A DNA stretch of 64,000 bases from an uncultured Prevotella sp. (GTDB lineage Bacteria; Bacteroidota; Bacteroidia; Bacteroidales; Bacteroidaceae), in NCBI GenBank assembly GCA_945949515.1, contig CAMFEU010000003.1:2398-66397 (forward strand), given 5' to 3'. The notes below the pieces were generated by a model, which saw only the letters and a program-made list of their open reading frames with translations, made no database searches and had not been told where the DNA came from. Position numbers and translations under genes: made by a program. This document shows positions 1,965 through 63,656 of this stretch, piece after piece; position 1 is the stretch's first letter, and every line of letters starts with the position of its first letter.

Positions 1965-3395
1965 TTACTCATGGGTATAGAGGTTCCAGCCCAGATAGTT
2001 CTCCAAGGCGTCGCGCACCACATCCACCACATCGGTACGTACCAATGCCACATGATGCTCAAAGGCATTGCGACAGATGTACTTGAGCAGTTGCTGCAGA
2101 TTGTTCACCTTGGTCACAGCGATACATCCATCCATTCCATACGGATCGCTGGTAATCTCTCCCTTGCCAAGGTATGCCTTGATGATGCCCTTTGGATCGT
2201 CGGTAGAGATGCGGAAGAAGGTGAACGGACCCTCAGACACCTTGGCATACACCGCTCCAAAGGTGCGCACCTTGCCCAGTGTTCTTCCCAACACGCCCAA
2301 GGGACCTAACTTCAAATCTTCGTTGCCCACAAAGCCACGGGCAAAGTTGCCACAGTGGGTGCACACACACTTGTTGCGGTCTTGCGCAAAGTTGTTGTTC
2401 CAGTCTGCCAAGGCTGCTGGCTGCTGGGTGGCCAATGTCAGGGCATACATAGAGATGGCTCCTGCCAGGTCGGTCTCGCAGGCTGCGGGGATAAGCTTGT
2501 CTGAAAGCATCGACATGGTGACACAGGCGGCACAGCCATAGTTTTGTTCCAGGCTGTCCCAACACTGAATAGCCACGGCATCCACCTGCTCTGCCTCCAT
2601 CCAGTTTTCTACTGCCACGCCAAATTTGGCTTGCACACGCAGTTTGTCTTGATAGTTTTCAGGCACTTTGGCGTATGCTGGTATTGTTTCCAGTTTTTTC
2701 AAGAACTTGGGGTCGTCATCGGCTATACGCTCTGCATTGTAGAGTATCTCTGACAAATCTACCGGCACCACAGTGATGCCCGCACGCTGCAATATCTTCT
2801 CACTGGCTCTACAGGTATTGAAGCCAAGCGGACGTGTACCTATCTGCCCCAAACGACAGTGACGCAAACCGTTTACCACACGGCACACAGCAGCAAACTT
2901 CACAATATCGGCCTTTACCAGCGGGTCGTATATATCATAGGTGTGATAGGTGGTGTCAGAGAAGGGAATGCCATACTGATAGAGGTTGTTGCAAACTGAA
3001 ATCTTTCCGCAGAAGGCATCACGACGCTGATCCAGATCTACCTTGTCGTTATAGTCATCGTAGGCCTGCACCAATACTGGCACATTGAGGTTTGCCTCGC
3101 TGATGGCGTTGATGATGCCTATCTCATAACCAAAATTGGGCAGGCACACGATGATACCATCAATGCGCTCACGATTCTCTTTGAACTGTGCAGCCACCTT
3201 CAGTCCGTCTTCACGGGTTTCAATGGATGAGCTGCCGGTCACGGTGGCATCTTCGGGCAGTATTACATACTCGTAGCCACACTCGTCCATAATGCGCAGT
3301 ATCTCCTTTCTCACATCTTTTGCCAATGCCGAGTTGAAGTAGGCACGGGTTCCGATGATGATGCCGAAACACTGTTTTTTAGTTACTTTGTTCAT
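1965..3395 (-). CDS. L-fucose/L-arabinose isomerase family protein (short, 476 aa)
   Basis: uninterrupted 476-aa ORF, last gene of the transketolase/kinase operon. Family assignment is from overall resemblance to FucI-like isomerases and has not been verified by search. Confidence 0.6.
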   Translation of the reverse strand: MNKVTKKQCFGIIIGTRAYFNSALAKDVRKEILRIMDECGYEYVILPEDATVTGSSSIETREDGLKVAAQFKENRERIDGIIVCLPNFGYEIGIINAISEANLNVPVLVQAYDDYNDKVDLDQRRDAFCGKISVCNNLYQYGIPFSDTTYHTYDIYDPLVKADIVKFAAVCRVVNGLRHCRLGQIGTRPLGFNTCRASEKILQRAGITVVPVDLSEILYNAERIADDDPKFLKKLETIPAYAKVPENYQDKLRVQAKFGVAVENWMEAEQVDAVAIQCWDSLEQNYGCAACVTMSMLSDKLIPAACETDLAGAISMYALTLATQQPAALADWNNNFAQDRNKCVCTHCGNFARGFVGNEDLKLGPLGVLGRTLGKVRTFGAVYAKVSEGPFTFFRISTDDPKGIIKAYLGKGEITSDPYGMDGCIAVTKVNNLQQLLKYICRNAFEHHVALVRTDVVDVVRDALENYLGWNLYTHE

Positions 3396-3420
3396 TTTGT
3401 TTTAGGTTTTAAGTTTTTAT

Positions 3421-4920
3421 TTAGGCTTGTTGGTTTGTCATTTGTATCACCCCGTTCACGGCACGATGCCATCCTGCCACCATCTGTGCCACCTGTTCAC
3501 GGGGCATGGCACTGTGAAACGCCTGGCGCGACTTGCGATGCTGTGCCACCTCGCTGAAAGAAGCATACACCCCACGTGCCAGCACATTCATCACAACGGC
3601 ACCAAGGGCACTTGCCTCCTCCACATCAGAGCAGTTTACCGATACGCCAAGCATGTCTGACTGCATCTGCATCAGTGTTTGGTTCTTGGTAGGACCGCCA
3701 TCGACACGCAGCTCTTTCAGAGACACTCCTGCCCTCTCTGTCATGGCTGTCACCAGGTCGTTTACCTGATAACATATACTCTCCAGAGCGGCACGCAGCA
3801 CATGGGCACGTGTGGTGGAAAGGCTCATGCCCACCAAGGCGGCACGTGCTTCCGTATTCCACCAAGGAGCTCCCAATCCGGCAAAGGCAGGCACAAGATA
3901 CACGCCTCCCGTATCGGTCACACGCAGTGCCTCTTGCTCCACTTCTGCCGGCGAGCCAATCAGCTGCAGTTGGTCGGCCATCCACTTCAGGGTGGCTCCC
4001 GTGCAGTGGATATTGCCCTCAAAACCGTAGTAGGTATGCCCCTTGGCAGCAAACGCCACCGAGGTGACCAACCCCTCTGGAGCCTTACAGAAGTTCTCAC
4101 CGACATTCACCATCACGCTCGATCCCGTGCCGTAGGTAGCCTTGCCATAGCCCTCGGCAAAGCACATCTGCCCTGCCAATGCACCATGACTGTCGCCCAG
4201 CACACCCGCTATCTTGATGGGTTGCGGCAACACGCCTTCCACTGTTGTTTCACCAAAAGAGGCATCGCAGGGCAGCACTTGAGGCATCATGCTGGCGGGA
4301 ATATCAAAGAGTTTCAGCAATTCCTCATCCCATTGCAGCGTACGGATATTGAGCAGCAGGGTTCTGCTGGCATTGGTCACATCAGTCAGGTGGTGCTTGC
4401 CACCTGTGAGTTTCCACACCAGCCAACTGTCGATAGTGCCCATGAGCAGATTACCTGCATCGGCTTCACTGCTTGCACCTTCCACATGGTGGAGCAGCCA
4501 ATGCACACCACTGGCAGAGAAATAGGGGTCTATCAGCAGTCCGCTTCTCTCTTGCACCATCTCTTGCCATCCCTCGGCCTTGAGTTGGTTGCAGTATGCA
4601 GCCCCTCTCAGGCATTGCCACACCACAGCATGAGCAATGGGTTTGCCTGTGTGGCGGTTCCACACCACCACCGTTTCTCTTTGATTGGTGATGGCCATGG
4701 AGTACTCATATTTGTCTGCGGGTTCATCGGCCAGCAGTTCTCTGACGCCCTCCACCACATTATTATATATCTCCTCGGCATCGTGTTCCACCCACCCGGG
4801 TTGGGGATAATACTGCTGGTGAGCCTTGTTCACACGTTTCAGCATCCGCAACTGCTCGTCAAAGAGCATCACCTTGGTACCACTGGTACTCTGGTCGATA
4901 GCTATAATCCTGTGTTCCAT
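3421..4920 (-). CDS. FGGY-family carbohydrate kinase (glycerol-kinase-like)
   Basis: motifs IIAIDQSTSGTK, GWVEHDAEEI, NQRETVVVWN, DGGPTKN. ATG at 4920 preferred; a GTG at 4929 would overlap the upstream stop. Confidence 0.85.
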   Translation of the reverse strand: MEHRIIAIDQSTSGTKVMLFDEQLRMLKRVNKAHQQYYPQPGWVEHDAEEIYNNVVEGVRELLADEPADKYEYSMAITNQRETVVVWNRHTGKPIAHAVVWQCLRGAAYCNQLKAEGWQEMVQERSGLLIDPYFSASGVHWLLHHVEGASSEADAGNLLMGTIDSWLVWKLTGGKHHLTDVTNASRTLLLNIRTLQWDEELLKLFDIPASMMPQVLPCDASFGETTVEGVLPQPIKIAGVLGDSHGALAGQMCFAEGYGKATYGTGSSVMVNVGENFCKAPEGLVTSVAFAAKGHTYYGFEGNIHCTGATLKWMADQLQLIGSPAEVEQEALRVTDTGGVYLVPAFAGLGAPWWNTEARAALVGMSLSTTRAHVLRAALESICYQVNDLVTAMTERAGVSLKELRVDGGPTKNQTLMQMQSDMLGVSVNCSDVEEASALGAVVMNVLARGVYASFSEVAQHRKSRQAFHSAMPREQVAQMVAGWHRAVNGVIQMTNQQA

Positions 4921-52928: not shown

Positions 52929-53015
52929 GCAAGGAAAAAGGCTCCATTGCTACTTTTCTGACTAAGAAAGAGCCAAAAAACTTTCATTTTTTTTGCTCGT
53001 TTGGCAGAAAAGTTA

Positions 53016-53023
53016 TACTTTTG
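53016..53023 (+). promoter_or_regulatory. -7 promoter box TActTTTG for the pheA leader transcript
   Basis: 52 nt upstream of the leader ATG at 53075. Confidence 0.55.
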
Positions 53024-55441: not shown

Positions 55442-56506
55442 ATGGAACTGGAATTAAAACCACTGAACTTACTGAAAGATGAAGAACGCCCACTGCTCAT
55501 CGCCGGACCATGCTCGGCAGAGACAGAGGAGCAAGTGATTTGTACCGCTAAAGACCTGGCAGCACGGGGATGCAAGATATTCCGTGCCGGCGTGTGGAAG
55601 CCACGCACCAAACCAGGAGGCTTTGAGGGCAACGGCGAAAAAGCCCTGCCATGGATGCAGGAGGTGAAAAAGGAAACGGGGATGCAGGTGGCCATCGAGG
55701 TGGCAACACCCGAACACGTGGAACTGGCTCTGAAATACGGCGTAGATATACTGTGGGTAGGAGCCCGCACCACCGCCAACCCCTTTGCCATGCAGGCTCT
55801 TGCCGACTCTCTGCAGGGAGTGGATGTACCCGTGCTGGTGAAGAACCCCGTGAACCCCGATCTGGAGTTGTGGATAGGAGCCATGGAGCGCATCAATCAG
55901 GCAGGCATCAAGCGCCTGGGAGCCATACACCGCGGATTCTCAAGCTATGACAAGAAAATCTATCGCAACCTGCCCATGTGGCAGATACCCATTGAACTGC
56001 ATCGCAGAATACCCGAACTGCCCATCTTCTGCGACCCCAGTCATATCGGTGGCCGCCGCGAACTGATAGCCCCACTGTGCCAGCAGGCAATGGATCTGGG
56101 CTTCGACGGACTGATAGTAGAAAGTCACTGCGACCCCGACAAGGCATGGAGCGATGCCAAGCAGCAAGTAACTCCAGATGTGCTGGAGTATATCCTTTCA
56201 CTGTTGGTGGTGCGCAGCGAAACCTGCACCACCGAGGGCATCACCACCCTGCGCAAGCAGATAGACGAACTGGACAACCAGCTGATGGAACTGATGGCAA
56301 AGCGCATGCGTGTGTGCCGCGAGATAGGACAGTACAAGAAAGAACACAATATGACCGTGTTGCAAACCGCACGCTACAGCGAGATACTGGAGAAGCGCGG
56401 TGCACAGGGCGCACTGTGTGGCATGGATTCACAGTTTGTAACCAAGGTGTTTGAGCAGATACACGAAGAGTCTGTAAGACAACAAATAGAGATTATCAAC
56501 AAATGA
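55442..56506 (+). CDS. bifunctional 3-deoxy-7-phosphoheptulonate synthase / chorismate mutase
   Basis: N-terminal KDO8P-synthase-like DAHPS domain (LIAGPCSAE, CDPSH). C-terminal AroQ-type CM domain (LRKQIDELDNQLMELMAKRMRV). Confidence 0.88.
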   Translation: MELELKPLNLLKDEERPLLIAGPCSAETEEQVICTAKDLAARGCKIFRAGVWKPRTKPGGFEGNGEKALPWMQEVKKETGMQVAIEVATPEHVELALKYGVDILWVGARTTANPFAMQALADSLQGVDVPVLVKNPVNPDLELWIGAMERINQAGIKRLGAIHRGFSSYDKKIYRNLPMWQIPIELHRRIPELPIFCDPSHIGGRRELIAPLCQQAMDLGFDGLIVESHCDPDKAWSDAKQQVTPDVLEYILSLLVVRSETCTTEGITTLRKQIDELDNQLMELMAKRMRVCREIGQYKKEHNMTVLQTARYSEILEKRGAQGALCGMDSQFVTKVFEQIHEESVRQQIEIINK

Positions 56507-56524
56507 CGCACAGCGTCATTTGTT

Positions 56525-56642
56525 GAAATTAAAAAATTAAAGAATTAAAAAATTAAATTACAAGAAAACCAAACTTCGAAAGGGACTTTCGAAGAATTAA
56601 AGAATTAAAGAATTAAAGAATTAAAGGATTAAATAATTAAAG
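56525..56642 (+). repeat. left array of AATTAAAG octamers (reverse complement of the right array) with an embedded perfect hairpin
   Basis: aattaaag x4 plus variants at 56595-56642. cttcgaaag-gga-ctttcgaag hairpin at 56574-56594. 56528-56548 is the exact reverse complement of 57312-57332. Confidence 0.85.
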
Positions 56643-56653
56643 TGAGCTGTGAT

Positions 56654-57052
56654 ATGGGTAAGGACAATTTAGTGTCAAATCTGAGTTTGGATTTTGCAGT
56701 ACGCATTGTAAATCTTTACAAATTCCTATGCACACAAAAAAAGGAGCACGTATTGTCAAATCAGGTATTGCGCAGTGGTACCAGTATTGGAGCTAATCTG
56801 TCTGAAAGCGAGATGTGCCAGAGTACCGCCGACTTTATCGCCAAACTACATATCTCCCTAAAAGAGGCCAATGAAACTAAATACTGGCTTACCTTACTAC
56901 AAAAAACCAACTATATCACAAAAGACCAATTCGACTCCATAAATCACGACCTCAGATTGATAATCGGGCTGCTGGTGAATGGATTGAAAAAGATAAAGGA
57001 AAAGGAAAAGCAAAAGGAAAAGCAAAGAACAGCAGAGAACCAAGCACCTTAA
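56654..57052 (+). CDS. four-helix-bundle protein (23S rRNA intervening-sequence protein / Avd-like family)
   Basis: about 130 aa. FAVRIVNLYKFL..., VLSNQVLRSGTSIGANLSES, FIAKLHISLKEANETKYWLTLL are characteristic of this family. K/E-rich tail. ATG at 56654. Confidence 0.85.
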   Translation: MGKDNLVSNLSLDFAVRIVNLYKFLCTQKKEHVLSNQVLRSGTSIGANLSESEMCQSTADFIAKLHISLKEANETKYWLTLLQKTNYITKDQFDSINHDLRLIIGLLVNGLKKIKEKEKQKEKQRTAENQAP

Positions 57053-57384
57053 TCCTCTATTCCTTTAATCCTTTAATCCTTTAATTTTTTAATTTTTTGT
57101 CCTTTAACCCTTTAATTCTTTAATCCTTTAACCCTTTAATCCCTTAATCCTTTAACCCTTTAATCCCTTAATCCTTTAACCCTTTAATCCTTTAGCCCTT
57201 TAACCCTTTAATTCTTTAATCCTTTAATTATTTACTCCTTTAACCCTTTAATTCTTTAATCCTTTAATGTTTTAATCCTTTAATTATTTACTCCTTTAGC
57301 CCTTTAATCCTTTAATTCTTTAATTTTTTAATCCTTTCTTTACCCCTTTAATTCTTTAATTATTTAATTATTTAATTTTAAAAT
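57047..57384 (+). repeat. tandem array of about 42 imperfect 8-bp units (consensus CCTTTAAT; variants TCTTTAAT, CCTTTAAC, CCCTTAAT, TATTTACT)
   Basis: read directly. The period is 8, so a TAA appears in every frame on both strands. The array starts at the stop codon of the four-helix-bundle gene and ends 9 nt before the tyrA ATG. Confidence 0.95.
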
Positions 57385-57393
57385 TTGAATGCA

Positions 57394-58188
57394 ATGAAAA
57401 TTTTGATAATGGGTGCAGGAAAGATGGGCAGTTTTTTCTTAGACCTGCTCAGTTTTGACCACGAGACGGCAGTGTATGAAAAAGACCCGAAGCGCATGCG
57501 CTTCACATACAACTGCCAGCGACTGACAACGCTGGAAGAGATCAAGAAATTCCAGCCAGAACTGGTGATCAATGCCGTGACGGTGAAATACACCATCCCT
57601 GCCTTCAAGGAGGTGATGCCCTATATACCCGACGATTGCATCATCAGCGACATCTCGTCGGTCAAAACACATCTCAAGGAGTTTTACGAAGAGAGCGGGC
57701 ATCCGTATGTGAGCACTCACCCCATGTTCGGCCCCACCTTTGCCAACTTGCAGCAACTCTCGGAAGAGAATGCCATCATCATCAGCGAGGGCGATTACAT
57801 GGGGCGCATCTTCTTCAAAGACCTGTATCATCGACTGGGACTGAACATCTACGAATACACCTTTGAAGAGCACGACCGCACCGTGGCATACTCTTTGAGC
57901 ATTCCCTTTGTATCCACATTTGTGTTTGCTGCAGTGATGAAGCATCAAGATGCCCCGGGAACCACCTTCAAGCGTCATCTGCGCATCGCCAAAGGCGTGC
58001 TCAATGAAGACGACTTCCTGTTGCAAGAAATACTGTTCAATCCCTATACGAGCAGTCAGGTGGATCAGATACGTAATGAACTGAGCGAACTGCTGGACAT
58101 CATCGACCGGAAAGACGGCAAGGCGATGAAACACTACCTCACCAAAATACGTAACAATGTGCGCCAAGACATTGAACAACTCAAGTAA
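57394..58188 (+). CDS. tyrA: prephenate dehydrogenase
   Basis: Rossmann ILIMGAGKMG, SVKTH..., HPMFGP; ATG at 57394. Confidence 0.88.
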   Translation: MKILIMGAGKMGSFFLDLLSFDHETAVYEKDPKRMRFTYNCQRLTTLEEIKKFQPELVINAVTVKYTIPAFKEVMPYIPDDCIISDISSVKTHLKEFYEESGHPYVSTHPMFGPTFANLQQLSEENAIIISEGDYMGRIFFKDLYHRLGLNIYEYTFEEHDRTVAYSLSIPFVSTFVFAAVMKHQDAPGTTFKRHLRIAKGVLNEDDFLLQEILFNPYTSSQVDQIRNELSELLDIIDRKDGKAMKHYLTKIRNNVRQDIEQLK

Positions 58189-59229: not shown

Positions 59230-61008
59230 ATGGGAGAATATATTGTATCGGCACGCAAATACCGTCCGCACTCTTTCGACACCGTGGTGGGACAGGCTGC
59301 ACTCACCGCCACCCTGCGCAATGCAGTGAAGAGCGGAAAGCTGGCACATGCCTATCTGTTTTGCGGACCGAGAGGCGTGGGAAAAACCACCTGTGCCCGT
59401 ATCTTTGCCAAAGCCATCAACTGCGAGCATCCCACCCAAGAGGGAGAAGCATGCGGAGAGTGCGAAAGCTGCAAGGCTTTTGCAGAGCAACGCTCGTACA
59501 ACATCTTTGAACTCGACGCAGCCAGCAACAACTCGGTGGAGCACATCAAGACACTGATGGAGCAGACACGCGTTCCGCCACAGGTGGGCAAATACAAGGT
59601 GTTTATCATCGACGAGGTACACATGCTTTCAACGGCTGCCTTCAACGCTTTTCTGAAGACATTGGAAGAGCCACCCTCGCACGTTATCTTTATCCTTGCC
59701 ACCACCGAGAAACACAAGATACTGCCCACCATCCTCTCACGCTGCCAGATATACGACTTTGAGAGAATGACTGTGGGAAACATCATCGACCATCTGAAGA
59801 AAGTGGCAGCACAAGAGGGAATAGCCTACGAAGAGGAAGCACTGGCCGTGATTGCCGAAAAAGCCGACGGCGGAATGAGAGACGCCCTGTCGGTGTTCGA
59901 CCAGGCCAACAGCTTCTGCCAAGGCAATATCACCTATCAGAAAGTGATAGAAGACCTGAACGTGCTGGATGCCGACAACTACTTCAAACTGATTGACCTG
60001 AGCTACACCAACAAGGTGAGCGATATCATGGTGCTGTTAAACACACTGATAAACAAAGGATTTGACGGCGGACTGCTGGTAAACGGACTGGCAAAGCACG
60101 TGCGCAACGTGCTGATGGCAAAAGACGAAAGCACGCTGCCACTGCTGGAAGCAAGCGAAGGTATGCGCCAACGCTACAAGGAGCAGGCAGCCAAATGCAG
60201 CACCTCTTTTCTCTATCAGGCACTGAGAATAATGAACCAGTGTGACATCAACTACCGACAGAGCAGCAACAAACGGCTGTTAGTAGAGCTGACACTGATA
60301 GAGGTGGCACAGATAACACAAGCCGACGACAGCACCGTCGCGGGGCGCCGCCCCAAGAGATTGAAAAGCCTGTTCAAGAAATCCATGTCCCAGCCTCAGC
60401 AAGCAAGGCGAGTTCCGCAGGTAACTCCAGCCGAGGCAGGACATGAAGCCCCTGCTACCGTTTCGGCACGCAGCATACTCAACGAAGACACCACCGCCAA
60501 CAAGCCCAAACCCCTGAGCATCAAAATGGGTGCACTGTCTAACTCATGGCAAAACATCAGGATTGCCTCTACACAGAAAAAGAGCATACTGACTCCCGGT
60601 ACGCTGGACAAGGACAACCCTGATGCCAAGATAACAAACGAGCATCAGACTTTCACTCAGGAAGAACTGGAACTACAATGGATGTCAATGTGCAACAGGA
60701 TGCCCGAACGCCTGAGCGGTACTGCCACCCGTATGAAAAACATCATTCCGCAGATTGTTTCCTTTCCCCATCTGAGAATTATGGTGGAAAATCAGATTAT
60801 GATGGAACAGCTGCAAGCCATCCAAGGAAGCATTGTGAACACCCTGCGCCTGCATCTGCACAATGTGGATATCACCATGGAGATGCAATTAGTGGCACAC
60901 GAAGGGCCCATCAAGATACTTTCGCGCCGCGAACAGTTTGAAGAGATGGCGAAAGAAAACCCCGCCGTAGGCAAACTCAAACAACTGTTTGACTTGGAAC
61001 TGGCCTGA
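59230..61008 (+). CDS. dnaX: DNA polymerase III subunit gamma/tau
   Basis: GPRGVGKTT, CGECESCKAF zinc module, FIIDEVHMLS, SRCQ sensor. Confidence 0.95.
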   Translation: MGEYIVSARKYRPHSFDTVVGQAALTATLRNAVKSGKLAHAYLFCGPRGVGKTTCARIFAKAINCEHPTQEGEACGECESCKAFAEQRSYNIFELDAASNNSVEHIKTLMEQTRVPPQVGKYKVFIIDEVHMLSTAAFNAFLKTLEEPPSHVIFILATTEKHKILPTILSRCQIYDFERMTVGNIIDHLKKVAAQEGIAYEEEALAVIAEKADGGMRDALSVFDQANSFCQGNITYQKVIEDLNVLDADNYFKLIDLSYTNKVSDIMVLLNTLINKGFDGGLLVNGLAKHVRNVLMAKDESTLPLLEASEGMRQRYKEQAAKCSTSFLYQALRIMNQCDINYRQSSNKRLLVELTLIEVAQITQADDSTVAGRRPKRLKSLFKKSMSQPQQARRVPQVTPAEAGHEAPATVSARSILNEDTTANKPKPLSIKMGALSNSWQNIRIASTQKKSILTPGTLDKDNPDAKITNEHQTFTQEELELQWMSMCNRMPERLSGTATRMKNIIPQIVSFPHLRIMVENQIMMEQLQAIQGSIVNTLRLHLHNVDITMEMQLVAHEGPIKILSRREQFEEMAKENPAVGKLKQLFDLELA

Positions 61009-61115
61009 GAGAAGAATAAAATTCTTTAATCCTTTAATTTTTTAATTCTTCTCTCCTTTAATCCTTTAATTCTTTAATCCTTTAATATTTTAATTCTTTA
61101 ATCCTTTAATTCTTC
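61009..61115 (+). repeat. short CCTTTAAT-type octamer array without cargo gene
   Basis: gagaagaataaaattctttaatcctttaattttttaattcttctctcctttaatcctttaattctttaatcctttaatattttaattctttaatcctttaattc. It fills the whole dnaX-asnA convergent spacer. gagaagaat (61009-61017) is complementary to attcttctc (61045-61053). Confidence 0.9.
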
Positions 61116-62153
61116 TTATATCAACGGCATTCCCAATTCTCTGCACTGGTTACGCATCTCCTCGGGCCAAATGCTTGCCTGAATTTCTCCGATATGCGCT
61201 TTGTGCAGCAGCACCATACACAGACGGCTCTGCCCTATGCCTCCACCGATACTCAGCGGCAATTCATCTGCCATCAACTTCTTATGGAAATAGAGTTGCA
61301 AGCGTTCTTCCTTACCCTCTATCTGAAGCTGGCGCACCAAGGCATCCTTATCCACACGAATACCCATGGAAGAGAGTTCAAACGACCTTCCCAGCACAGG
61401 ATACCATATCAGTATATCGCCATTCAAGCCGATAGAACCATCCTCAGCCACTGTGGACCAGTCGTCGTAATCGGGAGCTCTTCCATCGTGCTTTTTCCCA
61501 TCACTCAGTTTGCCTCCAATACCAATCACAAACACAGCTCCACGCTCCTTGCATATTGCATCCTCACGTTCCTTGGCACTCATGCCTGGATACATCTTCA
61601 GCAGTTCCTCGCTGTGTACGAAAGAAATTTTCTCGGGCAAGAATGGCTTTATCTGTGAATAGGTCTCGCATGTAAGATACTCCGTGCGGCGGATAGCAGC
61701 ATAGATGCGTTGCACCGTGTCTTTAAGATATGCCAGTGTGCGCTGTTCTTTGGTGATGACTGCCTCCCAGTCCCACTGATCTACATAGAGCGAGTGCAGA
61801 TTGTCCAACTCCTCGTCTGCTCTGATAGCATTCATATCCGTATAGATGCCATAACCTGGCTCTATGCCATATTCTCCCAAAGTGAGCCTCTTCCATTTGG
61901 CGAGCGAGTGAACCACCTCTGCCTTTGCATCCTGCAAGTCTTTCACAGGAAAGGTAACGGCACGCTCCACTCCGTTCAAGTCGTCGTTGATACCCAAGCC
62001 TTTGAGCACAAAGAGCGGAGCAGTGACACGTCTCAACCGCAGCTCTGTGGAGAGATTCTGCTGAAAAAACTCCTTTATCAATTTGATTCCCTGCTCTGTT
62101 TGCTTCACATCAAGCAGCGCTTTGTAGTCAATAGGTTTGATTAAATTGCTCAT
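61116..62153 (-). CDS. asnA: aspartate--ammonia ligase
   Basis: 345 aa with an AsnA-like class II synthetase-fold core (QSRLCM, GGGIGQSR). Confidence 0.9.
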   Translation of the reverse strand: MSNLIKPIDYKALLDVKQTEQGIKLIKEFFQQNLSTELRLRRVTAPLFVLKGLGINDDLNGVERAVTFPVKDLQDAKAEVVHSLAKWKRLTLGEYGIEPGYGIYTDMNAIRADEELDNLHSLYVDQWDWEAVITKEQRTLAYLKDTVQRIYAAIRRTEYLTCETYSQIKPFLPEKISFVHSEELLKMYPGMSAKEREDAICKERGAVFVIGIGGKLSDGKKHDGRAPDYDDWSTVAEDGSIGLNGDILIWYPVLGRSFELSSMGIRVDKDALVRQLQIEGKEERLQLYFHKKLMADELPLSIGGGIGQSRLCMVLLHKAHIGEIQASIWPEEMRNQCRELGMPLI

Positions 62154-62395: not shown

Positions 62396-62472
62396 GGTCT
62401 CGTAGCTTAGCTGAATAGAGCGTCAGATTCCGGTTCTGAAGGTCGTGGGTTTGAATCCCACCGAGATCACCA
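62396..62472 (+). tRNA. tRNA-Arg (anticodon CCG), CCA encoded
   Basis: hand-folded cloverleaf. Acceptor GGTCTCG/CGAGATC, D stem GCTT/GAGC, anticodon stem TCAGA/TCTGA with loop TTCCGGT, T stem GTGGG/CCCAC, discriminator A, CCA. Confidence 0.85.
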
Positions 62473-62562: not shown

Positions 62563-63228
62563 AAAATCACTTGCTTCATTTTGTTATTTCAATGAGTCCA
62601 TAAAAGGACATGCCTTAGATTTCTTCCGTCCTGAGAGGGGAGCTGATAGGGCGTGAAATGCTTCTTTTTAAAATGTGTATAGATGTTAAATACAGAGGAA
62701 AAATGGGCTGAAATGTTAAACTGCATATTTATGCAATTTCGTTCTGAGCCACTTTTTTCTCGCTGTGGACTATAATGAAGCCCAGAGGGAGATCGTGCGT
62801 TAGAACGAAAATTCTAAAATAGAAACTGATTATCAAGTAGTTACAAACCTAAAAATAGCGAATTATGGACCAGTGTAGTATCAAAATGACATGAAAACTG
62901 TTCACTTTTTCGCTTTTTATCCTCACAATCTGCCTAAAATTACCGATTTTTCTCCATGAAGTTCTATGAACCACAAAAATACAAAATCTTTACATTTTGG
63001 CGGAGATGGAAGGAGGTGCTCTGCCCCACTTTCAGTTTTCAGGTAGCCAATCAGTCTTCTTCAGATACGCAATCAGTCTTTCTCAAATTTCCACTTCCGC
63101 ATCTTTGAGTTTTTACTACTGCTTTTATGATGATTTACTCCTATTTTTATAATGAGGTGGTTAAATATAGACTAAATCCCCATGGATATTGCTTTGAATT
63201 TGTTTCTGACGTTGATTGCAATGCTTTC

Positions 63229-63413
63229 CTGCCGAGAATACAAAATTTTCAAGCCAGGAAAATAATTGTTTTCGGCCGAGAGAATTTTATGCTCGATATG
63301 AGAATCAACTACATTCCTTACGAGAATGAAGTGTATTCTGGTAAAGAATGAAGTGTATTCTCGTAAGGAATGTAGTTGATTTTCGTAAGGAATGTAAAAT
63401 TCTCGGCGGCAGA
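63229..63413. repeat. nested imperfect palindrome with perfect 25-bp inverted core arms
   Basis: 63303-63327 aatcaactacattccttacgagaat is the reverse complement of 63357-63381. Outer arms are gccgagagaatttta / taaaattctcggc and ctgccgagaat / attctcggcggcag. The 17-nt direct repeat agaatgaagtgtattct occurs at 63323 and 63345. Confidence 0.85.
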
Positions 63414-63656
63414 ATGTAACTCATTCAATATGAGGAAGAAAAATGTTGAAGATTTGGCTTCCAAACAGATCATTGGAGGAAGCCATGCAAAAAAGCAACC
63501 ATTGGGATGCAAAGTTGCATCTTTTGGAGTGCAAAGTAACACCCATCAAGATGCAAAGTAACAATTATCAGAATGCGATTCCATTTTTTTTCGATTTCAA
63601 CTTAGCATATCTTCCAACCACTAACGCCCCACTCCCCATCAAAAATCAGCCCTCTC

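Follow-up and report, generated by a model that had tools for sequence, protein, structure and literature searches.

Inverted arrays of short tandem repeats typically flank genes of the PF05635 four-helix-bundle family, which lie co-directionally between the cistrons of unrelated operons or within rRNA helices. Such arrays are the usual boundaries of these genes, including those carried in intervening sequences (IVSs) of 23S rRNA. The case presented here comes from a window of 64,000 nt, the whole stretch of DNA analysed, on contig CAMFEU010000003.1 (GCA_945949515.1) of an uncultured Prevotella sp., in which the spacer between the DAHP synthase/chorismate mutase gene (aroF/CM) and tyrA (56507-57393) holds a family member. 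We consider it probable, if by no great measure, that this is an IVS-type cassette in an operon spacer, promoterless, with arms that pair in the read-through RNA and with processing by RNase III inferred. The locus comprises the following features:

52992-53023, + strand: Bacteroidetes-type promoter-like site (TTTG, 20-nt spacer, TACTTTTG) 5' of the prephenate dehydratase gene
55442-56506, + strand: bifunctional DAHP synthase/chorismate mutase, cistron 5' of the spacer (PF00793, E = 2e-41; PF01817, E = 4e-25)
56496-56526, + strand: perfect 14-bp hairpin across the DAHPS/CM stop codon, TCAACAAATGACGC-ACA-GCGTCATTTGTTGA
56526-56557, + strand: left arm, outer block of four AATTAAAR octamers (TRF, 4.0 copies)
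56558-56594, + strand: module nested in the left arm, with a perfect 9-bp hairpin CTTCGAAAG-GGA-CTTTCGAAG at 56574-56594
56592-56642, + strand: left arm, inner block of 6.4 AAGAATTA/AATTAAAG octamers (TRF)
56654-57052, + strand: four-helix-bundle protein gene (PF05635, TIGR02436), 132 aa, pI 9.2
56986-57026, + strand: GAAAAG hexamer repeat encoding a K/E-rich C-terminal tail (TRF)
57049-57384, + strand: right arm of about 42 CCTTTAAT/CTTTAAYY octamers, period 8 (TRF, 41.6 copies at 57049-57376)
57380-57393, + strand: conserved AAAATTTGAATGCA motif directly ahead of the tyrA ATG
57394-58188, + strand: tyrA, prephenate dehydrogenase, cistron 3' of the spacer (PF02153)
61020-61114, + strand: solo array of 12 CTTTAATY octamers between a convergent dnaX-like gene (stop at 61008) and the ORF 61116-62153 (-)

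The host operon has the gene order pheA, aminotransferase, aroF/CM and tyrA, and the cassette lies between the last two on the same strand. Each flanking gene searched against Pfam proved to be an aromatic amino-acid gene (PDT, aminotransferase, DAHPS/CM, TyrA); genes farther downstream were named by eye or from orthologue context (EamA, dnaX-like, asnA-like). The start codon of tyrA at 57394 is backed by 80 orthologues. Since the sigma-70 model is uninformative for Bacteroidetes, it was replaced by a scan for TTTG/TAnnTTTG. The site ahead of the operon is the sole perfect TAnnTTTG box with a canonically spaced -33 TTTG on the + strand between 53000 and 59300, and the same scan found no Bacteroidetes-type box in the spacer, in line with the claim of the first-pass annotation that tyrA has no recognisable promoter box of its own. 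At the gathering threshold Rfam gave no match in the spacer, and no rRNA was found in the window.

The spacer had been described in that annotation as three parts, namely left octamers with a 9-bp hairpin, a 132-codon ORF and about 42 right octamers, with two mutually reverse-complementary arrays that carry stops in every frame. TRF and the sequence agree with this division, and recomputation and a codon scan returned the same complementarity and the same stops. Between the left and right arrays, the longest pairing spans 109 nt, with 73% complementarity, and the best of the shorter pairings covers 47 nt at 91%, a value also reached by inverted matches of the left inner block to the right array; the segment 56528-56548 is exactly complementary to 57312-57332. 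Each array carries stop codons in every reading frame of either strand. The right array is C-rich and G-poor, with a GC skew of -0.59 to -0.75. The arrays are not due to chance, since the two-unit pattern CTTTAATYCTTTAAT, with one mismatch allowed, has 37 matches in the window versus 0 in 100 shuffles. With tandem, non-coding and dispersed units of 7-8 nt, the three arrays of the window are STRR-like. A CRISPR identity was rejected on anatomy: the 8-nt units follow each other head to tail without spacers, versus repeats of about 23-47 nt with unique spacers between them in CRISPR arrays. The solo array at 61020-61114 has neither a four-helix-bundle gene nearby nor an inverted partner; the ORF 61116-62153 (-) beside it is taken, by eye, as a putative asnA.

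The 14-bp hairpin is an inverted copy of the 3' end of the DAHPS/CM gene. It is kept in the related loci L001 and L020 and shows a compensatory change in L027. As it is limited to the window clade (window, L001, L020 and L027) and L132 among 64 scanned cassettes, a stop-codon-spanning hairpin was rejected as a general insertion footprint. The AAAATTTGAATGCA motif ahead of tyrA also closes the inserts of L001, L020, L027, L075, L089 and L094, though their repeat units differ.

The proposed affiliation of the ORF with the four-helix-bundle/IVS family is borne out by HMM searches, which scored above the curated cut-offs of both PF05635 (E = 7e-26, 91 bits, cut-off 33.8) and TIGR02436 (E = 9.5e-28, 96.6 bits, cut-off 24). 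The family motif GxxRxxxSxxxNxxE (Zhang & Ye 2014) is present as R-SGT-S-IGA-N-LS-E and invariant in the homologue alignment, with its first G replaced by Q in the window clade. The K/E-rich tail is lineage-specific and is missing or different in homologues. The AlphaFold2 model consists of four helices (pLDDT 91) and matches 2RLD, 2GSC and Avd (4DWL) with target-normalised Foldseek TM-scores of 0.98, 0.86 and 0.86, respectively; the nearest matches outside the PF05635 family are Avd and the DGR ribonucleoprotein. The fold shared with Avd, which the annotation had mentioned, is seen in the model (TM-score 0.84-0.86 to the structures 4DWL and 8UBE, rmsd ~2 A), although sequence identity is just 11-13%. 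A DGR identity of the locus itself was rejected on anatomy, since the Pfam-scanned neighbours are all aromatic genes, with no RT or template/variable repeat beside them.

Comparison with L001 and L020 gave a dN/dS of 0.03-0.04, and by this measure the protein is under strong purifying selection. In the protein tree, copies from the aromatic operon of Prevotellaceae group together as a single clade. Strong constraint and monophyly within the operon fit a useful resident better than a parasite. Of the alternatives "selfish or regulatory" offered for the element, the first is accordingly doubtful, all the more as no recent transposition was seen.

Short-repeat arms are a property of the family at large. 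Among 62 diverse PF05635 genes from metagenomes, 38 are flanked by inverted tandem 7-8-mer arrays, versus 2 of 110 neighbouring genes that served as controls, and the arm duplex has z <= -3 in 44 of the 62. The repeat unit varies by lineage and the architecture is retained. Two genuine 23S rRNA IVSs (L201 and L163) bear the same tandem-heptamer arms. The two family members with crystal structures, 2RLD and 2GSC, are structural-genomics entries. The former, BT_0352, is 62% identical to the window protein and lies in the order araD|BT_0352|araA between arms of (AATTGAC)x4.6 and (ATTGTCA)x4.4; the latter, XCC0516, adjoins bccP, and a GGGAATC x4 array overlaps its start. Both differ from the window cassette in operon, repeat unit and the shortness of the arms. 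The gene with mirrored arrays was also found on isolate replicons of Nostoc and Euhalothece, and copies in Treponema and Monoglobus have related, less regular repeats.

The settings of the cassettes follow a common pattern. Of 55 upstream neighbours 53 are co-oriented with the cassette, as are 44 of 54 downstream neighbours, with median gaps of 38 and 54 nt, and the operons split in this way are diverse (among them araD|araA, hsdS|hsdR, pntA|pntB and kinase|regulator). The 5' arm is more purine-rich than the 3' arm in 59 of 66 cassettes (p = 2e-11), a polarity that points to constraint acting on the sense strand. The literature search found no published link between the PF05635 family and heptamer or octamer arrays and no paper commenting on the flanks of BT_0352 or XCC0516; this agrees with the earlier view of the arrays as an undescribed cassette boundary, with subscription journals thinly covered and a prior description possible.

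The junction itself is polymorphic. Among 78 related Prevotella species, counted apart from the window species, the L001-L010 species and L128, which are all gene-bearing, the aroF/CM-tyrA junction is tight and empty in 55; an insert without the gene occupies it in 21, and 2 carry the gene there. The empty sites establish the presence/absence polymorphism that the first-pass annotation had asked of this junction, and the sporadic presence corresponds to that of 23S IVSs. Inserts of the same design at this junction use at least six different units. L001-L010 and L020 have the same gene with 4-unit arms; L128 has a 62%-identical copy with about 6 and 4 GATTGAAA-type units, and L027 a 66%-identical copy flanked by repeated AAGGTCTTCGACCTT hairpin modules, without octamer arms.

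Arrays without a gene are common. In 586 kb of sequence from loci of 80 related species there are 197 arrays, about one per 3 kb, and they occupy nearly every junction of L001; of 22 adjacent inverted array pairs only 3 enclose a gene. The expectation that arrays co-occur with four-helix-bundle genes therefore stands when viewed from the genes (38 of 62 versus 2 of 110) and fails when viewed from the arrays, as gene-less arrays and pairs outnumber gene-bearing ones; the arms could thus belong to the host, with the gene as no more than an occupant. Gene-less and gene-bearing elements of one genome have a common unit and subterminal sequence, AATTAAAG and TTCGTTTGCG in L001, while AATTGAAG is common to both kinds in L047, L097 and L105. 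The gene-less copies match the gene-bearing copy at both ends. In L047 one array lies in frame within an EamA gene.

In the predicted RNA fold the ORF is placed in the loop of the long-range array stem, in the MFE as well as the centroid structure (z = -8.6), as had been proposed for a long AU-rich stem in a read-through transcript; complementary borders that form a stable stem-loop are likewise a mark of IVSs. Of the 338 nt of the right array, pairing with the left arm is possible for the distal ~110 nt only, and CTTTAATC, the prevailing unit of the right arm, forms A.C mismatches when set against AATTAAAG. Across the WC-registered arms of 64 cassettes, mismatches show no significant bias of G.U over A.C (49 vs 63), beside 119 transversions. 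Complementarity may thus be kept at the DNA level rather than selected in RNA, and no claim of RNA-specific selection on the stem is made.

IVSs with an S23p ORF are described from the 23S rRNA of Leptospira, Coxiella and Brucella (Ralph & McClelland 1993; Warrier et al. 2016, PMC4990558), and RNase III excision of such stem-bounded sequences is established for Coxiella, Salmonella and Leptospira (PMC4990558). Like these, the window cassette consists of a PF05635 ORF bounded by complementary arms that would form an extended stem-loop and is sporadic among relatives. Unlike these, which replace the loop of helix 9, 25 or 45 in the rRNA gene and are cut out by RNase III with no re-ligation, it lies between protein-coding genes, its arms are long and hypervariable, and its excision by RNase III is proposed by analogy; its ORF is strongly constrained, whereas the Coxiella IVS ORF is reported as decaying. 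The idea of an IVS-like cassette inside an mRNA is in this way supported in part, by the family match, the empty sites and the arms shared with 23S IVSs.

As an IVS-type cassette, the element would consist of a PF05635 gene between a purine-rich forward array and a downstream reverse-complement array. As it is promoterless itself, transcription from the operon promoter near 53016 would run through it and on into tyrA, which would be expressed from this transcript. Pairing of the arms in the transcript would yield a long AU-rich stem whose loop contains the ORF, a geometry like that cleaved by RNase III in 23S rRNA IVSs, so that the same processing may be expected here. Cleavage would separate the aroF/CM message from the tyrA message, and the 14-bp hairpin over the aroF/CM stop would protect the upstream 3' end. 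L001 and L020, whose arms have about 4 units each, presumably reflect the compact ancestral form, and replication slippage in the window lineage may have extended the arms to 10 and ~42 units. The role of the protein and the route by which cassettes come to new sites are points that we infer.

A different function would follow if the arrays were binding sites, in RNA or single-stranded DNA, of the four-helix-bundle protein, which would autoregulate or package its own transcript and act in trans on the many orphan arrays of that unit found elsewhere in the genome. This proposal, which is compatible with an IVS-type cassette, models the basic and probably pentameric protein on Avd holding the RNA that flanks the DGR template; Avd, likewise basic, functions in a complex with RNA that borders the region of its own gene (PMC10053308). 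The Avd fold and nearest structural neighbours, the pI of 9.2 and the strong purifying selection on the protein are consistent with binding, as are the unit and subterminal sequence shared by gene-bearing and gene-less elements of one genome and the unit that changes by lineage within a constant architecture. Also in its favour, selection for a simple RNA stem is insufficient to explain complementarity that lacks a wobble signature. However, unit and protein would co-vary just as much if they were simply inherited together, and orphan arrays occupy junctions of species whose sampled loci are without the gene. We regard binding by analogy with Avd as an unlikely main explanation.

Alternatively, the cassette may be a foldback or MITE-like element acting at the DNA level, with the arms as terminal inverted repeats, RNA pairing incidental, the gene-bearing form "autonomous" and the gene-less hairpins of 85-290 bp its deletion derivatives. 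Eukaryotic Foldback elements have terminal inverted repeats made of short tandem repeats and an optional coding loop. Presence and absence at one junction with at least six units in inserts of one design would be expected of such elements, and so would ends common to gene-less and gene-bearing copies, symmetric mismatches (G.T 49, A.C 63, transversions 119) and the in-frame array inside the EamA gene of L047. Moreover, the protein tree intermixes copies from 23S rRNA with copies from mRNAs. Against this, no target-site duplication could be defined for the cassette, and no near-identical cassettes were seen in different contexts. Three identical copies on plasmids of Nostoc flagelliforme were rejected as a sign of mobility, as they are parts of larger segmental duplications in which the neighbours recur as well; the contig L104, where another gene precedes the same protein, was set aside because it is a 2-kb k-mer assembly that is possibly chimeric via a 32-nt array. 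A helical bundle of 115 aa carries no known catalytic motif, and neither the strong sense-strand polarity of the arms nor the near-obligate co-orientation of cassettes and host genes is expected of a purely DNA-level element. On balance such a DNA-level element seems improbable to us.

The length of the arms varies strongly in the window lineage. Usual arms have 4-5 units, and the longest otherwise found reach 11 copies among the metagenomic genes and 13 on a replicon of an isolate. Among contigs that encode the identical 132-aa protein, L011, taken as the same species, has the hairpin module 56558-56594 duplicated; L013 has 14.4 units in the left inner block versus 6.4 in the window; and L012 has 13.8 units in the right array versus 41.6, a short array that could be an assembly collapse. 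Judged from these contigs, the ~42 units of the right arm reflect an expansion specific to lineage and strain. The arms break short-read assemblies, as is seen from contigs of the window species that stop inside arrays. The polymorphism may alter expression of the downstream gene. It is conceivable that the expanded right array is a length-variable Rho-loading or polarity element that would tune tyrA against aroF/CM between strains as a contingency locus: an untranslated, promoterless array of 338 nt in which every frame is stopped and the GC skew falls as low as -0.75 would suit this, as would 13.8 versus 41.6 units beside an identical protein. With arms of comparable length in no other family member and the L012 value open to collapse, such a role appears quite improbable.

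Very unlikely is the reading of the arrays as ordinary STRR-like repeats of the Prevotella lineage that flank a conserved operon gene in inverted order by accident, which would agree with their ubiquity (about one per 3 kb and nearly every junction of L001), the solo array, the monophyletic and vertically stable gene in the aromatic operon and the partnerless intergenic heptamer arrays of Xanthomonas, Nostoc and Beggiatoaceae, but is already disfavoured by the excess of inverted arrays around family members over neighbouring genes, by the same design in several phyla and inside 23S rRNA, and by the consistent polarity of the arms.

Intergenic heptamer repeats have been described as cyanobacterial STRR, as GGGAATC in Xanthomonas (70 convergent inverted pairs) and as TAACTGA in Beggiatoaceae (PMC4692102, PMC4679880). 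Like the arrays of the window they are tandem, non-coding units of 7-8 nt, often right after a stop or before a start codon, sometimes in inverted pairs and variable in copy number. The published repeats name no protein partner or cargo gene, whereas the arrays found here systematically bracket PF05635 genes. REP/BIME, Correia elements, pneumococcal BOX and eukaryotic Foldback are similarly dispersed, stem-forming and placed between cistrons. Correia elements are RNase III substrates. The sequences and mobilising proteins of these four groups are unrelated to those described here, and the window cassette comes with no transposase or RAYT-type gene.

On a more speculative note, PF05635 proteins and intergenic heptamer or octamer repeats (STRR, GGGAATC, TAACTGA, AATTGAC and AATTAAAG) might be the two halves of one system, in which the protein binds, processes or propagates the repeats, the gene-bearing cassette is the complete element and orphan arrays are non-autonomous sites; we put this forward tentatively and hold it to be doubtful. 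If true, a complete element could live in any long-lived transcript, operon spacer or 23S rRNA helix alike, and the orphan arrays and gene-less hairpins, in their thousands, would serve as non-autonomous sites of the system. The comparative data tie together three observations that had stayed separate for decades: the ORF-bearing 23S IVSs of 1993, the S23p family and the heptamer tandem repeats, which are abundant in the genomes of Cyanobacteria, Xanthomonas, Beggiatoa and Bacteroidetes. To our knowledge, the sole known role among four-helix-bundle/S23p proteins is that of the distant relative Avd, in spite of two crystal structures. The family now gains a concrete candidate substrate in its own repeat arms, and the question is testable in model organisms, with BT_0352 of B. 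thetaiotaomicron and XCC0516 beside accB in X. campestris. A phage collection gave only two weak matches.

The spacer between aroF/CM (end at 56506) and tyrA (start at 57394) contains every element described in the first-pass annotation, to which a hairpin across the aroF/CM stop codon was added:

56496-56526: 14-bp hairpin across the aroF/CM stop codon
56526-56557 and 56592-56642: left octamer arrays (TRF)
56574-56594: perfect 9-bp hairpin
56654-57052: four-helix-bundle ORF, 132 codons (PF05635, TIGR02436)
57049-57376: right octamer array, 41.6 copies (TRF)

Comparison of the left and right arrays confirmed their mutual reverse complementarity; the 21-mer pair quoted for them is exactly complementary, and stop codons occur in every frame of the arrays on either strand. 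The two-unit octamer pattern matched 37 times in the window versus 0 times in 100 shuffles. The K/E-rich protein tail stems from a lineage-specific GAAAAG hexamer repeat (56986-57026), which has partial complementarity (AAAGG/CCTTT) to the right array and is paired with it in the MFE fold.

The ORF matches the family to which it had been assigned (PF05635, E = 7e-26; TIGR02436, E = 9.5e-28). Its AlphaFold2 model (pLDDT 91) superimposes on BT_0352 of B. thetaiotaomicron (PDB: 2RLD) and XCC0516 of Xanthomonas campestris (PDB: 2GSC) with target-normalised TM-scores of 0.98 and 0.86, and the fold is indeed common to Avd, the accessory protein of diversity-generating retroelements (DGR) (PDB: 4DWL, 0.86). 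Since the aromatic-operon copies form a single clade in the protein tree and dN/dS is 0.03-0.08 (dS ~1.4 between the window and L001, a contig of a pig-gut relative), the gene appears to be a long-resident, functional protein gene and not a decaying passenger.

Among 80 Prevotella-type species retrieved via TyrA, 78 had both flanking genes. The empty sites anticipated for an insertion were found in 55 of these, with a tight junction of −4 to 69 nt; a gene-less insert of 85-290 nt was present in 21 and a four-helix-bundle gene in 2. The pig-gut relative (L001-L010) and a further locus (L020) have an orthologue of the gene (89-91% identity) at this junction, with arms of only about four octamers per side. 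Contigs encoding an identical 132-aa protein, taken as the window species, carry left arms of 4-14 units and right arms of 13.8 or 41.6 units; with such differing counts, the long arms would represent a recent, variable expansion, although arrays may have collapsed during short-read assembly. Roughly half of the inserts without a gene consist of tandem 7-9-mers, a loop and the reverse-complement array, with a unit that varies by lineage (AATTTTGA, AATTGAAG, GAAATGAA, AGTTGACA, GTTTACG and others). Some of the remaining inserts are GC-rich palindromes, and because one such element (...CTCCCCTCCCTGCGGGGGAGGGGTCGGGGGTAGGGC..., ~3245-3500) lies in this junction in other species (L017, L034, L058 and L061), hairpin inserts of several kinds seem able to occupy the spacer.

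The closest homologues (60-67% identity; X. ruminicola and others) reside in the same operon at the preceding junction, where the aminotransferase gene is followed by aroF/CM, and are flanked by (AATTGAAG)4-5 and (CTTCAATT)3-4. The same species carry a gene-less hairpin with identical arms at the aroF/CM-tyrA junction. Their unit is one base apart from that of the window, with a compensating change in the opposite arm. In three loci of this group (L097 2463-2498, L105 2456-2489, L047 1892-1925) the forward array begins within the last aminotransferase codons (...RRIEELKN* or similar), so that the repeat provides the C-terminus and the stop codon.

A metagenome scan with the family alignment, skewed toward relatives of the Prevotella query, yielded 80 diverse loci (46-66% identity), 62 of them with sufficiently long flanks. 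Upstream/downstream duplex energy lay 3 sd or more below that of dinucleotide shuffles in 44 of the 62, and TRF arrays with reverse-complement units stood on both sides of 38 of the 62 genes; of 110 genes adjoining them in these loci, only 2 had such arrays. Family genes thus appear, as a rule, to be enclosed by inverted tandem-repeat arrays. In the 38 loci the period is mostly 7; units across the family include AATTGAC, AATTAAC, AGTTAGA, AATGCAA, AAGTGAA, AATTCGG and the GC-rich GGAATGC, and the median stem is 32 nt. The arrays occupy the gaps to the neighbouring genes (median 38 nt upstream, 54 nt downstream), which mostly share the strand of the gene (upstream 53/55, downstream 44/54). Unrelated operons are split by cassettes (araD/araA, hsdS/hsdR, pntA/pntB, mevalonate pathway, rml-type, kinase/regulator); the family also occurs between cmr3 and cmr2 (Zhang & Ye). 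The protein encoded by the metagenome locus L130 (1940-2430) matches the 2RLD chain at 100% identity; this places BT_0352, crystallised as an 'S23 family' protein, between araD and araA with arms of (AATTGAC)x4.6 upstream and (ATTGTCA)x4.4 downstream. In a published repeat table, the interval from bccP to XCC0516 contains GGGAATC x4, an array that overlaps the start of XCC0516. Finished isolate replicons gave mixed support: the mirrored-array design is present in Nostoc flagelliforme, Nostoc TCL26-01 and Euhalothece, the inverted repeat of the Monoglobus copy is tandem only in part, and the Treponema array arrangement is more complex. Two metagenome loci are genuine 23S rRNA genes (RF02541) whose intervening sequence (IVS) stems likewise consist of such heptamer arrays, and their proteins interleave with mRNA-borne copies in the protein tree; the same cassette thus appears to reside in both mRNA operons and rRNA. 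The order hsdS, four-helix-bundle gene, hsdR recurs in L138, L184 and L206 (metagenome contigs and Monoglobus pectinilyticus, Bacillota); type I restriction-modification operons may carry the cassette along.

The proposal of an IVS-like cassette within an mRNA stood in part. In both the MFE and the centroid fold, the left arm is paired with the distal part of the right arm (z = −8.6), leaving the ORF in the loop as suggested; the cassette is oriented as its host operon, likewise across the family; and a plus-strand scan of the spacer gave no canonical Bacteroidetes promoter for tyrA, the sole one on the cassette strand lying upstream of the operon (52992/53016). On the other side, arm mismatches showed no wobble bias (49 G.U vs 63 A.C), and the predicted fold leaves the greater part of the expanded right arm without a pairing partner. 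Weighing these, we lean toward an IVS-type cassette that would be co-transcribed with its host operon and probably processed by RNase III, which cuts stem-bounded IVSs (PMC4990558). Two alternatives remain, both compatible with it. The arms may be binding sites of the four-helix-bundle protein, or the cassette may be a DNA-level foldback-like element. Of 66 cassettes, 59 have a 5' arm with a higher purine content than the 3' arm (p = 2e-11), a consistent polarity that is unexpected of a purely DNA-level symmetric element and favours the RNA-level reading.

The protein family, rRNA IVSs, Avd and intergenic heptamer arrays were already known separately. A literature search, with subscription journals mostly outside it, found no account of inverted tandem-repeat arrays enclosing PF05635 genes, of one cassette type in both mRNA operons and rRNA, or of gene-less arrays sharing the cassette ends, which those described here appear to do. 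As the window cassette lies outside the rRNA location that defines a 23S IVS, and DGR components are absent from it, we file it as a PF05635 member putatively working like an IVS.

The expected association of arrays with family genes held around the genes themselves, but arrays greatly outnumber genes: 197 arrays were counted in 586 kb of related loci, and of the 22 adjacent inverted pairs there, just 3 contain the four-helix-bundle gene. In L001 a module of (AATTAAAG)4 and TTCGTTTGCG occupies nearly all junctions. At 385-511 of this contig, the prephenate dehydratase stop codon lies inside a hairpin (CCAAATAGCTGC-AA-GCAGCTATTTGG) that derives from the 3' end of this same gene, and a forward octamer array comes next; the combination of stop-spanning hairpin and array thus recurs in this genome. 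In the window, 12 CTTTAATY octamers form a solitary array (61020-61114), with neither inverted partner nor four-helix-bundle gene, which separates a dnaX-like stop (61008) from the stop of a convergent minus-strand ORF (61116), taken by eye as asnA-like. In L047 (4939-4984), a CTTCAATT x5.8 array is translated in frame within an EamA-family ORF (...IFQFFNPSILQSFNSSI...), resembling the in-frame palindromic-element insertions of Rickettsia. Further repeats in the window comprise several separate 22-nt tandem duplications (63038-63576; 2-3.3 copies each), unrelated in sequence to the octamers, in AT-rich non-coding DNA downstream of a tRNA gene (62396-62469), and a purine-rich AACAAAGA / 18-19-nt tandem repeat at the left edge (236-302).
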